This document shows positions 12,001-57,000 of a stretch of 64,000 bases of DNA, piece by piece (position 1 is the stretch's first letter; each line of letters begins with the position of its first letter). The stretch comes from Escherichia coli (GTDB lineage Bacteria > Pseudomonadota > Gammaproteobacteria > Enterobacterales > Enterobacteriaceae): NCBI RefSeq assembly GCF_965641715.1, contig NZ_OZ282453.1. One strand, 5' to 3'. The position numbers were made by a program.

Positions 12001-15000
12001 ACGACAATATGTTATTGAGGAAAATAGCGCAAAAATGGTGTTATCCCGTGCGATAGATAATGCCATAGGCACATGGAGAAAAGACAATCCTAAAAATATT
12101 GCCGTATTGTCTTCAGGTGTTGTGCTTGCGCATAACGAGTCAGCTGATATCACCAAAGAAGTCATGACTTTGGTTGAAAAAGAAAATCTGGTTTTTAATA
12201 AATTACCCAAAGTGGAAGTGCACAATAAGAATGAAGAGAAACCAGAACAAAGTAAGTAATCACTAGATTCTGACGATTTCCAGAAGGGAGATTCAGCAGG
12301 CCAGCATCTGTAATCATTCAGATTTGCTGGCTTGCTGCTAAATATGGTTGCTAAGAAAAATAGCAGGCCAGTAATTTATTCAGATTACTGAATATAATAA
12401 TTTTTCAGGAACGGTTATGCTGAAGGTAGTATGTTTAATAGACACAATTATTTGCTGTGTCTAATATGAGGTGACATTTTTATGATCACTGACCAGCAAG
12501 ACTGACCCGTATTGATTAGCCTGATTATTGGCAACTTATTGGGGTAGTCATTTTGACATCGAATGGGGGAGGTTTCCAGTTAAGTTCACGAATGCATGAT
12601 GATTTGCGTTCACATATCGAAGTACTGGTTGGCTATACTAAGGATTTTAAGATAACTCACTGATTGTAAGTGGGTTATTGCGAGGGGGATGATAGATGGT
12701 GTCCCCTGCAGACATCTACTTGAAGCAGCAGGGGATTGATTGGAATGGTGTTTTTTAGATGTGAGAAATATTTTACCCGCTATTTTACCCATTGGCGCGG
12801 CTTAAGAGCTTATTTTTGAATTCACAATGGTCACGATATAACCATCTTGCTCGACCGTGGATAACTTTGGCTTTTGGCAGGTCGCCGGACTTAATCCGGT
12901 CGTAGATGAAGGTTTTACCAAAGCCAGTATCAGCCATGATGAATTTCAAATCAACCAGGGAATCAGGCTGTAGTTCGTGTTGCATGAGTGCTATCTCCGA
13001 ATAGGGAATCGAACCTGCAAATCAGGTAATAAAAAACCGCCATCAGGCGGATTGGTGTTCTTTCAGTTCTTCAATTCGAATATTGGTTACGTCTGCATGC
13101 GCTATCTGCGCCCATATCATCCAGTGGTTATAGCAGTCGTTGATGTTCTCTGCTTCGATAACCCTGTTGAATGGCTCTCCATTCCATTCACCTGTGACTC
13201 GGAAGTGCATTTATCATCTCCATAAAACAAAACTCGCCGTAGCGAGTTCAGATATAATATCCACCAAAGGCAGTAGTTGCTTGATGCTAAGAATTATTCA
13301 ATATCTATTCCTGTAATATCTTTTATCTTTTTCCTTGCAAAGCCTTTTGCTAGTGATTTTGAAACACTCATAAGTGTACTAATTCCCTCATCCTTAAAGT
13401 TTGTTTTTATAGCTTGCCAGACATCCTTTTGACGTAAGTCAGCAATAAAATCATGCCCTCTTGCTGTCAACCTCAGTGGTACTTCGATCCAACTATATCC
13501 AACACCTTCCCCTAACGCTTTGGACATTATATGACCGAACCCAGGTTTTCCATCAACCCTGACTATTAATTCGTAGTCACATAATAATCGCATATGGAAA
13601 ATAAAATCTTGGTCATATCTATTAAAGCCATTATCCTCTAGTTCACTAAGCATCGTGTCAGGGCCACGAGTTTTTTCGAATGCGATAAGTAGATCTTTTA
13701 GATATTGCTGGTCTAATTTCATTGCCGCCTCCGTGACATGTCACAGAGATTTATATCATTAATTTTGTTTCGTGCCAGCGTTTGGTCACCCAGCATTGTG
13801 AGTCACCATTACACGGGCATGAATTAACAGGAACTCTCTCGCCGCACTTACCTCAACGTTTTCTGCTGATCGATTTTATACGCCAGCGCACACGTGCATC
13901 ATCCTGGCGGCTCAGTAACGCGATGTACTCACCAAACTCGCAAGGCGCACGCCTGAAGCGACGCGTGGCACAGTTACGCTCCAGCATTTCAATTTCCTGA
14001 GCATCAAGTACAAGCTCCAGCTTACGCATACCGGATGATGCTTGCTTGGCTCTCCGATCGGCTTTGTGCTCTGTTGCTGATTTAGCCATTCTGCTTTTCC
14101 TGCATCAGGAGAAAGACAATCATGGCGGCGCGGATACTTCCGGTATCTTTTTACGCGATATTCCCCTTCAATGGCACATACAAGAAGAGAGCCATCAACA
14201 GGAGTGATTGAGGAATCGACAACCAGCAACGCTTAATTATCTATAGTGTCGTATTTGCTTCATAAAATATGGCGAATAACACAAAGCCCGCAGCAGCTCA
14301 TTGTGCGGGCTTTTCTTATACCTACTTCCTAGAGATAATTCTATGGAGGCATTAAATCAATACTGTCATTGGTAATATCATATTATCTAAAAGTCTTTCC
14401 ACTTTTAACATCTAGGTATATTCTGTTCGACAACGTCATTCCTCCGCAATATGTGAAATAGATGTTTTCACCCTTATTGCTTGATGCCATCCACCCTCCG
14501 ATTTCCTTAAAATCGCTTTCCGTGCAGACCCCTTCATTTATTAACTTCCTAGCTGCCGAAGAAAACTCTTTTTTGTATATACGGTAGTCATCAGATCCTT
14601 TGATTAAAGTATCATCTCCGCTCGCATTTTCAGCAGGATCTGATGGCCTTTCACTGCTAAGATCACTAAGTTTAACCCATTCTGAAAACTTTCCATTAAC
14701 GATTCCATTTTTTCTTGTGCAGGATTTATTACCTTCTTTAATATATTCGCTTTCCCCTCCAACACATGAGGCTGAATATGGCTCAGTTATACGAACCCAT
14801 TCACCTTTTTTTTCTAGAAAATCTACGCCTTCCCTGAAAAATAGTTTCCCAGCCACTCCACATTTACTTGAAGGGCAGGTATGTCTTTCCGTTCGATCAA
14901 CAACAACCCATAGTTTTGATTCATTTTTTGCCATTGCCGATGGTATTTGAGATGAGACAATTAACGTAAGCCCTAAAATTAGTATTGATTTTTTCATTGT

Positions 15001-54000: not shown

Positions 54001-57000
54001 TGTTATCCTTGGCAATTCGATCATAATAATATTTGTTGTACCCAGATAAATTTTGCATAAACATCTTCTCTTATTAGATTAATAATATTATATTTCACCA
54101 TTGCTGAGTCTGTCCAACAGTGCTTGTTCTGAATTGCCACGGATAATCTAGACACTTCTCAACTATTGATACTGGTTTTCGTATTCAGTTGGTTGCATCT
54201 GATCGCTCGAACCATGCCTTCGTTTACTGTTATACAACATTTCGATGTAATCAATAATATCGCTATGTGCTTCTTACCACGTTCTGTAGATCTTTTTCTT
54301 TATCCGCTCACGTTTCAGCAACTAGAAAAAGTTTTCTGCAACCACATTATTGTGACAGTTACCGCGACCATTCATACTATCCTCCAGACCGTGTGATTTC
54401 AGGAACTACTAACGCTCATGGCTTGTGACCTGCTCCCTGATAATTCACACAGAAGGCTATTAGCAATGTCCGTTGATCGCTCACAGCCGACATTCAGCCC
54501 ACTAAATCCGACCGCGTCGATCAATATGCGGACAGGCTGTAGTACTAACTGCATTGTAGCTGTGAGATTTCACTATCGATGGCTTTTATAACCTGTTTAT
54601 AGCGGAGCATGACCTCTTCATGAATCATCATTAATCCGCGGCCGTACTCTGTGGCTATGATTGTATATCTTTTCAGGTGTGCAAGATGTTCTTTGTTGCC
54701 AGTAATGTCACTTGCAACCTGCGTGGAGTCCAGCCGTTCGATAAGCGCATTATTGCCGCGATAGGAATCAATTAGGCTTCTTGCGCTTGTATAAAAAGCC
54801 ACAATTTTTGAGAGTGTTTCTCTATGAACTTCAGGTAGGGATGCCGAGTTGGTTTCATAGAACGTGAAGTAGTTTTGAGTAATGGGGAAAATGTTATCGA
54901 ACGGTGAGTTCCGATCGTATTTTTCGATTTCTTCTGCCATTCTGGCCTGATACAGTTTAATCAGTGAATCTATTTCCTCTCTGACACCCAATAGCGTTGT
55001 TATACGCTTCTCTCTGGCCGCTGTTGCCTGCTGTTTTGCCTGCTGTTTCACCTGAGTTGTCACTCCTATCATCGTGAAACAGCCACCTAAAAGAGCTGCT
55101 AAAAATGCGGAGATGAGATCTGAATATTCGTGCCAGAAGGTTAGCATGGCGAAAATTCCATTGGGTTAAATTATGTCTATTTAACCACATAATGATACGA
55201 AGATACCTTCCAAAATGTTGCTATGACCCCATCTGTTGTTGCCTAGCTGGTGACGTGTCTGGGTATTAGCACCGTGCTCTCTCATTATCTAAGTCTGGGC
55301 CAATCCTCGTTCATAACAGGCATTCACTTCAGTCATGGCAGAAAGGTATGCATGCTGGAGAAGTCATGAAAGAAAAGAAGACTTCTGCCTCGTTTGTCAT
55401 CACTGTTATCTTCTCATTGATTATGCAGGTCATAGTGGGGACACACAAAGCTTTGTACTATCCGAAAGTGGTTAAGGTGGATCACTCCACCTTTTCATCA
55501 AGCCGGTCCGCCCACCATTGCATCATTTCTCTGCGCTTATCGAGATACTGAGCATGGTTGTAAATCCCACGTACAGATCCGCCGTTGGCATGTGCCAGTT
55601 GCACTTCAATGGCGTCGGCAGGCCATTCGTGCTCGTTCATAATCGTGCTGAATTCATGCCTGAATCCGTGACCGCTTTCCAGACCTTCATAGCCGATTTG
55701 TTTGATCACAAGTAGCACCGCGTTCTCGCAGATTGGCTTCTTCTTATCGTTGCGCCCGGAAAAAACAAACTCTGATACTGGTTTAGTGATTGAGCTTAGT
55801 GTAGTGAGAAGTTCAACCACCTGGTCTGACATCGGGACAACATGAATTTTGCGTCCCTTCATCACACTGGCGTCGATGGTGATAATCCTGTTTTCAAAAT
55901 CGACGTTCTTCCATAGCATGGAACGAAGCTCTTTTGTTCTTAGGGCTGTGTAGCGTAAAACTTTGGTCGCAATGAGCGATACGATACTTCCTGAAAATGT
56001 TGCAAGTGCTTTGTTGAATGCCGGGATCTGGTCGGCAGGTAAAAATGGGAAGTTCTTCTTGCGGTATCCCTTCATGGCGTCAGCAAGGTCAGGTGCCGGG
56101 TTATATTTAGCCCTACCAGTGACAATAGCGTAACGGAAAACCTCGCCGCATCTTCTGCGGGCTTTATTTGCTCGCTCCATTGCACCGCGATCTTCAAATC
56201 TGCGGATTACTTCCAGTAGTTGCATCGGCTCAATATCCTGAATTTCAAGACCGCCGATGATGGGTAAAATGTCGTCATCAAACATTTTTGCAAGTTCATT
56301 TGCATAGCCTACTGACCAGACTTGCTTCTTGTGCTCGTACCATTCCTTGTAAATGGCGCTAAAGGAATTGTTGTTAGACGAAGCCTTTTTCGCCTTTACC
56401 GGATCGATGCCAACCGAGATGTATTTCCTCGCAGTCCATGCTTTATCCCTTGCCTCTTGCAAAGTCATAAGCGGATATTTTCCGACGGTCAGGATTTTCT
56501 CCTTACCGTCAATCTTGTAGCGAAGCTGCCATACCTTTTTCCCTGACACAGGGACATAAAGGTACAGGCCATTACCATCGAGAAGGCGGTATGGTTTTTC
56601 TTTCGGCTTTGCTGCTTCAATCTGCTTAACGGTGAGCATGGGTAAAAATCCGGTGGGTAAAATTATTTTATCCACTTTTTACCCGTCATGGAGTGCGGCT
56701 GTCAACGATCTGAAGCGAACCATGACGAACTGTGAATCTACGGAATGCTTGATATTCAGGGGATTTTGCGAACTGGTACGGATGGGAGCGAACTGATAAA
56801 TGGTGTCCCCTGCAGGAATCGAACCTGCAATTAGCCCTTAGGAGGGGCTCGTTATATCCATTTAACTAAGAGGACAATGCGGCATGAGTATACCCGCTAA
56901 TGGACTGCGGGGTAAGTACGCTGCCGCTCGATTGCTTAAACCCTCGCCATTTATGCCGGGTTTTTATCATTTTTCTTAATGTTTTCCGCACGTTCTGCTT

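Follow-up and report, generated by a model that had tools for sequence, protein, structure and literature searches.

This work concerns the prophage at positions 12712–56799 of a 64,000-nucleotide stretch of Escherichia coli DNA (contig NZ_OZ282453.1 of RefSeq assembly GCF_965641715.1), which is referred to here, at its full length, as the window. In chromosomal order the window holds dsdC, an island encoding the autotransporter UpaE, the prophage, argW, yfdC, mlaA and fadL (RefSeq annotation of strain TL20). TL20 is the nearest genome, 99.4–99.99% identical over the aligned parts, and its annotation is the source of many of the gene names used below. It carries a near-identical prophage at the same argW site, the sole such copy among 5,426 complete E. 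coli genomes, a survey set that does not contain the source genome of the window. We are very confident that one temperate lambdoid prophage of 44.1 kb makes up the whole element, that it belongs to the lineage of Salmonella phage SEN34 and Escherichia phage vB_EcoM-611R5 (hereafter 611R5), and that IntS, an integrase of the KplE1/CPS-53 type, inserted it in the 3' end of argW. Its limits are marked by the attachment (att) cores and the recombination genes (aa, amino acids):

12696–12711: left att core (attR side, adjoining torI), ATGGTGTCCCCTGCAG, an exact 16-bp repeat of the argW 3' end
12785–12985, minus strand: torI, so annotated in TL20 too, the excisionase or recombination directionality factor that goes with the KplE1/CPS-53 module; its 66-aa product and K-12 TorI are 100% identical
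55482–56639, minus strand: intS, tyrosine integrase of the KplE1/CPS-53 type, 99% protein identity to K-12 IntS, also annotated as intS in TL20
56800–56815: right att core within argW, the identical 16-bp repeat
56801–56875, minus strand: argW, tRNA-Arg(CCT) (ARAGORN, Rfam)

The core ATGGTGTCCCCTGCAG occurs twice in the window, against 0.03 copies expected from shuffled sequence, and its second copy is the 3' end of argW. The two att cores thus directly bracket the interval 12712–56799, which a first, sequence-only reading had already given; it measures 44,088 bp, of which 42.7 kb remain once the insertion sequence described below is left out. A search of the window for a third core or degenerate copies found none. 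The same reading had put IntS and TorI at opposite ends, and so they are, with intS on the right and torI on the left. Together with integration into the argW 3' end, the duplicated core and the conserved att arms, this arrangement is that of the KplE1/CPS-53 module; the att-flanking regions are 95.6–98.8% identical to K-12 CPS-53, the value for the attR/torI segment (12695–13035) being 98.8%. This conserved argW recombination module is known from KplE1, HK620, Sf6 and others (PMC3509656), and the int region of the window also matches the podoviruses CUS-3, phiv205-1 and HF4s. Because the module is portable and occurs in podoviruses such as HK620, Sf6 and CUS-3, it is uninformative on the ancestry of the remaining element. 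At the left end of the prophage, just upstream of torI (13005–13020), there is also a 16-nucleotide stretch, GGAATCGAACCTGCAA, that duplicates the T-arm of argW, which in the tRNA comes after the att core. The fragment, likewise present in K-12 CPS-53, lies at the junction where KplE1-type homology stops (13035) and lambda homology starts (13028), and could either be left over from an earlier att site or mark the module junction.

The lineage of the prophage is read from its virion module:

28912–37978, plus strand: packaging, head and neck genes (Pfam, TL20 annotation)
37982–39127, plus strand: tail sheath, DUF3383, 98.7% identical to 611R5
39138–39578, plus strand: tail tube, KPP10_Orf10, 99.3% identical to 611R5
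39582–40034, plus strand: assembly chaperone, 86.7% identical to 611R5
40058–40222, plus strand: DUF6889 protein (Pfam/TL20)
43550–45848, plus strand: baseplate hub region with a 195-aa Dit-like protein, a 100-aa plug, a 353-aa hub and a 113-aa protein (TL20 annotation)
47099–50080, plus strand: baseplate genes for a spike with a GpV apex motif, a 117-aa protein in the W/gp25 position, Baseplate_J and a DUF2612 wedge (Pfam; 97–98% identical to 611R5)

The head part includes the portal (PF06381), a DUF2213 head protein and the major capsid protein (PF09950), along with TerS, TerL, minor head, Gp24-like and neck proteins. From TerL to the constant part of the tail fibre, protein identity to 611R5 is 97–100% with four exceptions (the Dit-like, plug and hub proteins, for instance, stand at 97–98%); the lower identities are those of TerS (66%), the chaperone (87%), the first 354 residues of the tape measure (79%) and the 113-aa protein (just 54%). 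A PF06381 portal, PF09950 capsid, DUF3383 sheath, DUF3277-type tube, Baseplate_J and DUF2612 follow one another in the order of the SEN34 virion. At the DNA level the module is ~81% identical over ~11 kb to SEN34, a Brunovirus, and ~83% identical to Yersinia phage YP3. Megablast against SEN34 covers 44% of 37000–57500 at 80.8%, short of the ~70% whole-genome identity of a genus, and for 12300–37000 the 25 best matches do not include SEN34. By these comparisons the element is a phage of the SEN34 kind, not demonstrably of the same genus. The sheath, tube, GpV-apex spike, Baseplate_J and DUF2612 families uphold the tail module of sheath, tube and V-W-J-I baseplate that had been proposed before. 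At least 80% of 29000–41590 is present at 92–97% identity in 279 of the 5,426 genomes, at many chromosomal positions. One of the prophages with the same virion module is that of E. coli 98201 (NZ_CP173561.1, 3195631–3245221), which lies at thrW, the tRNA-Thr gene adjoining proA; it has int and xis together at its left end, a HipA-family kinase and a DUF3037 gene beside the repressor, and a full-length pinE followed by a GIY-YIG protein and other cargo.

To the left of the virion genes lie the early, immunity and lysis genes:

13028–16500, minus strand: non-essential 'ea' region (TL20 annotation, Pfam/PHROG)
16502–19439, minus strand: lambda PL operon with exo, bet, gam, kil, cIII, ea10 and ral, 96–100% protein identity to lambda
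19653–20234, plus strand: sieB, superinfection exclusion, P22-type allele, 83% protein identity to P22 SieB
20251–20523, minus strand: N-like antiterminator (Pfam N_peptide)
20836–21486, minus strand: LexA-type repressor, 98.6% identical to phage 21 (reading frame) and 93% to P22 C2
21567–21752, plus strand: cro, 96.7% identical to phage 21 and 95.1% to P22
21861–22139, plus strand: cII/C1-like gene, 89% identical to P22 C1
22174–25522, plus strand: replication and nin region with O, P, ren, ninB, ninE, ninF and ninG, 93–100% protein identity to lambda and phage 21
25566–26084, plus strand: Q21-like late antiterminator, 86% identical to phage 21 Q
26147–26221, plus strand: tRNA-Asn(GTT)
26227–26302, plus strand: tRNA-Thr(TGT), with tRNA-Asn directly downstream of Q
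26545–27765, plus strand: lysis cassette of S holin, R endolysin and Rz spanin, 99%, 98% and 64% identical to lambda

The first position with homology to lambda is 13028, the counterpart of lambda 29103, right behind xis, and DNA identity is 90–98% in 13028–13259, 15249–19632, 22149–25547 and 26304–27696. The products of exo, bet, gam, kil, cIII, ea10, ral, O, P, ren, ninB/E/F/G, S and R are 93–100% identical to their lambda counterparts, and Rfam recognizes the cIII thermoregulator RNA (Lambda_thermo, 88.5 bits) at 18570–18628. The list of lambda-like genes in the sequence-only reading was thus correct, with Rz more distant and sieB nearer to P22; sieB has no match in lambda, and ninC/D/H/I are absent from the nin region. 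Calling the repressor, cro and cII region P22-like was fair (93%, 95% and 89%), but the repressor and cro are closer to phage 21. The succession of recombination genes, N, repressor, cro, cII, O/P, nin, Q and lysis, with exchangeable homologous modules, is that of a lambdoid phage. Within the 'ea' region are the lambda ORF (open reading frame) after xis, a DUF2513 protein (13294–13722), TraR/DksA, homologues of orf61/63/60a, pseudogenes, and a 204-aa phrog_8310 protein (14383–14997) for which a Pfam search gave no match. Decayed genes lie at 13751–14229 and 15248–15499, pseudogenes according to the TL20 annotation: one ORF is broken by an internal stop, another encodes only part of a 'DNA repair protein', and an Ea22-like gene is frameshifted. 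They indicate some erosion of non-essential genes besides the insertion described next. Of the tRNA pair, the TL20 annotation lists tRNA-Asn only.

The late region carries an insertion in the tape-measure gene:

40212–43550, plus strand: tape-measure/lytic transglycosylase gene, split by IS421; intact, with 662 aa, in TL20
41595–42931, minus strand: IS421 (IS4/IS186-like), 1337 bp, with 22-nucleotide terminal inverted repeats and a 13-bp target duplication
41765–42883, minus strand: IS421 transposase ORF, 372 aa

The length of ~1.34 kb, the terminal inverted repeats, the single transposase ORF and the target duplication (GGGATTCGATCCC, at 41582–41594 and 42932–42944) are those of IS421, and the copy is 99.3% identical to the IS421 annotated in 2,146 E. 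coli genomes. In silico removal of 41595–42944, that is, of the insertion sequence (IS) and one copy of the duplication, restores an open frame of 1989 bp; as it stands, the protein is cut after residue 461 of 662 and the interrupted frame stops after 480 codons. The TL20 prophage is without IS421, and there is no second tape-measure gene within the prophage of the window. Tape-measure proteins are needed for the assembly of long tails, as in the case of lambda gpH and T4 gp29. Since IS421 splits this gene, no tail assembly is expected from the present copy. This insertion and the truncated invertase described below are two defects that the sequence-only reading had missed.

The tail fibre gene has an invertible 3' part, followed by the remains of an invertase gene (Tfa, tail-fibre assembly protein):

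50062–52391: tail fibre with invertible C-terminal segment; the fibre gene (50062–50871) crosses the first hix-like site
50062–50431, plus strand: constant fibre part
50412–50431 and 52337–52356: hix-like 20-nucleotide inverted repeats containing AAACCTTGGTTT
50874–51317, plus strand: 147-aa Tfa, following the expressed variable fibre end
51289–51891, minus strand: silent 200-aa Tfa
51891–52336, minus strand: silent alternative fibre end with Collar domain
52418–52546, plus strand: remnant of a serine invertase of the Pin/Gin family, 41 codons, 40 of 41 residues (98%) identical to the N-terminus of e14 PinE (184 aa)

Both orientations of the segment are seen across genomes, so that the invertible fibre noted earlier is real. 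In TL20, whose prophage is otherwise 99.9% identical, the segment stands in the opposite orientation, and the inversion is therefore best read as having occurred within the lineage of these two prophages. The segment (50432–52336) matches TL20 in inverted form at 93.6% identity, with ~6% divergence and a non-homologous stretch of 177 bp, while the flanks are 99.9% identical. Cross-alignment of paralogues was considered as a source of this inverted match and rejected, since no colinear alignment was obtained even at word size 11. The divergence of ~6% between flanks of 99.9% identity suggests either an invertase acting in trans or exchange of the cassette from another prophage; similar fibre segments are found in 222 genomes. 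Compared with the Hin/Gin/Cin/Pin switches, the crossover sites and the alternative fibre ends with their Tfa genes are in place, but the adjacent invertase is reduced to 41 of 184 codons. TL20 holds the same stump, annotated as a partial recombinase.

Among named phages, 611R5 and its relatives 606R2 and 683R1 (vB_EcoM-; ON470588, ON470579 and ON470593) come closest in the terminase-to-fibre module (29275–50431), with 93–97% DNA identity, and in them, too, the fibre end is invertible, of the hix type, with an invertase gene behind it. On the other hand, the early region of 611R5, which encodes a DNA polymerase and a helicase, is not of the lambda kind; this phage is also without the IntS/TorI module, and differs further in its baseplate-slot gene, its uninterrupted tape measure and the cargo after a short invertase gene of 104 aa. 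A urinary coliphage of the 683R1 kind is a myovirus by electron microscopy (PMC12945033). SEN34 shares exo-bet-gam-kil, O/P, nin, Q, lysis, the virion module with DUF3383 sheath, fibre, a cargo gene and int; it differs in host genus, integrase and immunity region, its int-adjacent cargo is an O-acetyltransferase, and no invertible fibre is annotated. Electron microscopy identified SEN34 as a myovirus with a lambda-like control region in a new lambda cluster (PMC5261728), whereas the contractile tail of the present element is predicted from its genes; that cluster is designated 'temperate 26'. In its early region the prophage matches phage 21 in repressor, cro, O, P, Q and the tRNA-Asn/Thr pair, which in phage 21 likewise follows Q. 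Set against lambda, phage 21 and the lambda imm21 hybrids, it is without lambda int/xis/attP, rex and siphovirus head and tail genes, and its cII-like and sieB alleles are of the P22 type.

Cargo genes occupy the space between the invertase stump and int:

52593–52622: 13-bp hairpin of the 445-aa gene
52721–54058, minus strand: 445-aa predicted zinc metallopeptidase, M48-like fold, distantly Lit-like
54116–54087, minus strand: promoter-like site of the 445-aa gene, sigma-70-like at 11 of 12 positions
54162–54404, minus strand: remnant of an IS3-family transposase (pseudogene, TL20 annotation placed on the window by alignment)
54545–55147, minus strand: 200-aa protein with N-terminal hydrophobic segment

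The G+C content (GC) of 52400–55480 ranges from 0.32 to 0.46. As a unit, this stretch is found in TL20 only among the complete genomes, and an exact-protein lookup places its genes on about 100–130 assembled contigs. The slot corresponds to that of gtrA/gtrB/yfdI in K-12 CPS-53; it holds no gtr genes and, in agreement with the replaced cassette described in the sequence-only reading, carries the peptidase, the IS3 remnant and the 200-aa protein. A direct Pfam search (E ≤ 0.01) gave no match for the 445-aa protein. Its relatives form four clusters at 90% identity, with 47 representatives among 1.84 billion protein clusters, and the residues kept in the family are H285-E286-x-x-H289, H294, E315 and D319. 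Weak profile matches across 30 members were to Peptidase_M48 (28), CapP (23) and Lit (13), and also to M78. An AlphaFold2 model from a 3-sequence alignment (predicted local distance difference test, pLDDT, 36) was discarded; with a 30-sequence alignment the pLDDT is 88. The protein agrees with a gluzincin of the M48 type in its HExxH helix and downstream Glu ligand within a predicted M48-like fold. With hhalign the family aligns to e14 Lit over 140 columns (probability 80%, E 1.4e-5), including HExxHxxLxHP and E-x-EAD; the PADLOC Lit model matches 27 residues only of the 445-aa protein (E 5.9e-4; best in the family, E 1.1e-5). From these features the gene can be read as a self-transcribed cargo gene, or 'moron', for a putative Lit-like zinc protease. 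A homologue of 33% identity is a lone opposite-strand gene in a Rac-like prophage.

Lit, peptidase U49, cleaves EF-Tu when triggered by a phage capsid peptide and so causes abortive infection. The cryptic K-12 prophage e14, which encodes it, resembles the present element in layout: its invertible fibre segment is followed by pin and a defence gene, in e14 mcrA, and the protease gene lit lies beside int. Identity is 98% in the N-terminus of Pin and 87.5% in TfaE. It differs in that Lit has 297 aa, against 445 aa here, that the present peptidase belongs to a small family of its own and that pin is truncated here. Since e14 has lit beside intE and mcrA after pinE, we view the int-adjacent slot as one for defence cargo; a role of the peptidase in abortive infection of other phages, like that of Lit, we infer only by analogy. 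The 200-aa protein, read as a membrane protein, belongs to no Pfam or PHROG family. Its gene has DNA identity of 91–96% to genes of the IncI2 plasmid pSM107_MCR; it recurs after tail-fibre genes on that plasmid and on ~110-kb plasmids of Citrobacter, Enterobacter and Salmonella, mostly 'non-mobilizable', which may be phage-plasmids. A two-gene system of the 200-aa and 445-aa genes was considered and rejected: the IS3 remnant lies between them, the former occurs alone on plasmids, and homologues of the latter stand alone. The two genes are probably independent.

Further cargo is found at the bor position of lambda and within the baseplate region:

28376–28918, minus strand: 180-aa phrog_5663 protein with weak DUF2441 match, opposite-strand cargo in the lambda bor position
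45908–47076, plus strand: cargo cassette, starting with a 258-aa helical protein (phrog_17809; PHROG)
46665–47036, plus strand: 123-aa HEPN protein (weak Pfam match), overlapping the 258-aa gene
47055–47076: terminator-like hairpin after the HEPN gene

The HEPN assignment is based on a sub-threshold Pfam match (19.6 bits, cut-off 22) and the NCBI name. A direct Pfam search of the 258-aa protein returned nothing, and PPR/TPR-like and other weak matches from comparing the protein and its family with PDB and Pfam were judged spurious. The cassette, with a GC of 0.43 against 0.53 in its flanks, is present in 2 of the 5,426 genomes, and the same pair occupies the identical slot of a Serratia prophage. 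This slot, between the gene of the 113-aa baseplate protein and the spike gene (45850–47098), varies across relatives and holds a 170-aa ORF in 611R5, a hypothetical gene and the YafO toxin in 98201, and a DUF4282 protein in 00_3230.

Outside the prophage, the island at 853–12259, between dsdC and the left att core, encodes the tyrosine invertases ipuB and ipuA, a helix-turn-helix regulator, a 176-aa ORF and UpaE, a phase-variable autotransporter of 2,639 aa. In K-12 dsdC directly abuts the attR of CPS-53, without this island; no copy of the att core was found on the dsdC side of the island.

How the prophage is related to CPS-53 and to the Sf phages decides how much of the original interpretation can be kept. 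That interpretation saw in it a near-full-length relative of CPS-53, akin to the serotype-converting phages SfII and SfV, with the seroconversion cassette swapped. The argW site, the 16-bp core, IntS and TorI at opposite ends with 99% and 100% identity, and an int-adjacent slot that holds gtr genes in CPS-53 and different cargo here, do point in this direction, as do short similarities in fibre and tail-fibre assembly genes. Yet by blastn the DNA shared with K-12 inside the prophage is confined to 12695–13035 (~340 bp at torI), the int/att end from 55451 onward and two fibre/tfa pieces of 126 and 418 bp (~550 bp), the latter being the only homology to the CPS-53 interior from yfdG to yfdT. In CPS-53 that interior comprises gtrA/gtrB/yfdI and also yfdP-yfdT; the latter genes match orf28-32 of SfV and are absent here, so that the near-full-length kinship does not hold. 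Shigella phage SfV, taken to represent the SfII/SfV/SfX serotype-converting myoviruses, has an analogous plan, being temperate with lambdoid control, a contractile tail and cargo between the fibre genes and int. Its endolysin is 88% identical and its fibre matches over 69 aa; the DNA in common amounts to 434 bp in the endolysin gene and 126 bp in the fibre gene. It differs in its HK97-type head, Mu-type tail, early region, adjacent int and xis and gtr cassette. When all 29 structural proteins were compared with SfV by tblastn (E ≤ 1e-3), matches were limited to one tail-fibre assembly protein and a 69-aa part of the fibre, and no head, sheath, tube, tape-measure or baseplate protein did; the resemblance to an Sf-type serotype-converting myovirus has to be given up with regard to the virion, and no gtr cassette is present either. 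The portable IntS/TorI module, found also in HK620, Sf6 and CUS-3, is no sign of common descent for the remainder. We therefore regard kinship with CPS-53 and the Sf phages as very unlikely and already largely refuted. What survives is a looser version, in which a lambdoid myovirus carries exchangeable cargo in a slot beside int, and for this SEN34, not the Sf phages, is the proper reference; of the overall picture, the mosaic prophage with CPS-53-type integration, lambda early genes, P22/21 immunity and a contractile tail stands, and the CPS-53/Sf kinship falls.

The prophage might also be intact and able to form infectious particles, the IS and the invertase truncation being irrelevant or compensated. 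None of its early, lysis, head and baseplate genes is shortened, and all are 93–100% identical to their counterparts in functional phages; the att cores are undamaged, as are intS and torI, and the tape-measure gene is uninterrupted in TL20. The cut after residue 461 in a 662-aa protein that long tails require, in an element with no second gene of this kind, makes us consider this very improbable. The idea that at least two neighbouring elements share the interval, such as a lambda-like prophage with a distinct, tailocin-like tail cluster or an island next to it, draws on the sharp shift in relatedness, lambda-like up to ~27700 and 611R5-like from ~29275, and on the block of low-GC cargo that adjoins int. 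There are, however, just two att cores and one integrase; the order of Q, lysis, terminase, head, tail, fibre and int is that of SEN34 and of the 98201 prophage; the 42.7 kb without the IS compare with 42.7 kb in 611R5 and 40.7 kb in SEN34; and a near-identical prophage occupies the same site in TL20. We find a composite of this kind scarcely credible. The prophage is, in our view, an ordinary mosaic of well-known parts, defective in its present copy and unusual only in a few uncharacterized cargo genes.

As a single lambdoid prophage of the SEN34/611R5 lineage, the element would be expected to work as follows. The repressor would keep PL and PR shut until its SOS-triggered self-cleavage released early transcription, antiterminated by N. 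TorI and IntS would excise the genome, O and P would replicate it, and Q would turn on the lysis and virion genes. With IS421 in the tape-measure gene, tails should then fail to assemble, and with an invertase of 41 codons the fibre switch would move only if another invertase acted in trans. The accessory genes would ride along in usual cargo slots: sieB and ral in the PL operon, the 180-aa gene in the bor position, the HEPN pair upstream of the spike, and the pair adjacent to int.

Several points weigh against parts of this account. We infer induction, excision and particle formation from the biology of lambda, phage 21, P22 and KplE1. The 258-aa/HEPN pair could be virion-associated rather than cargo, since its slot is kept across genera. 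The link between the peptidase and Lit is weak, as seen from the hhalign probability, a marginal match to Pfam U49 and the better scores of most members with M48 and CapP, so that fold, position and context allow no more than a guess at a defence role. A more ambitious proposal can be made only tentatively, and we hold it to be doubtful: that the 445-aa gene founds an uncharacterized family of single-gene, prophage-borne abortive-infection proteases with M48-like fold, distantly related to Lit and carried as self-transcribed cargo in lambdoid prophages, and that the slot upstream of the spike in SEN34-type prophages is a previously unlisted hotspot for toxin and defence genes such as the HEPN pair and YafO.

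As a prophage, the element changes little in the general picture, being a recombinant of portable modules: KplE1 integrase and directionality factor, lambda/21 early genes and a SEN34-type virion. Prophages of this type are present in ~5% of complete E. coli genomes. The correction that follows from its analysis is that an IntS/TorI module does not amount to CPS-53 or Sf-phage ancestry, since it is common to unrelated phages. The prophage also offers a view of decay in progress, with a recent IS421 insertion that is missing from a sister copy of 99.9% identity and an invertase that is truncated, next to a fibre segment whose orientation still differs between the two strains. Finally, it carries candidate defence cargo in recognizable slots, a rare Lit-like protease of M48 fold and a HEPN pair, which provide modest leads.

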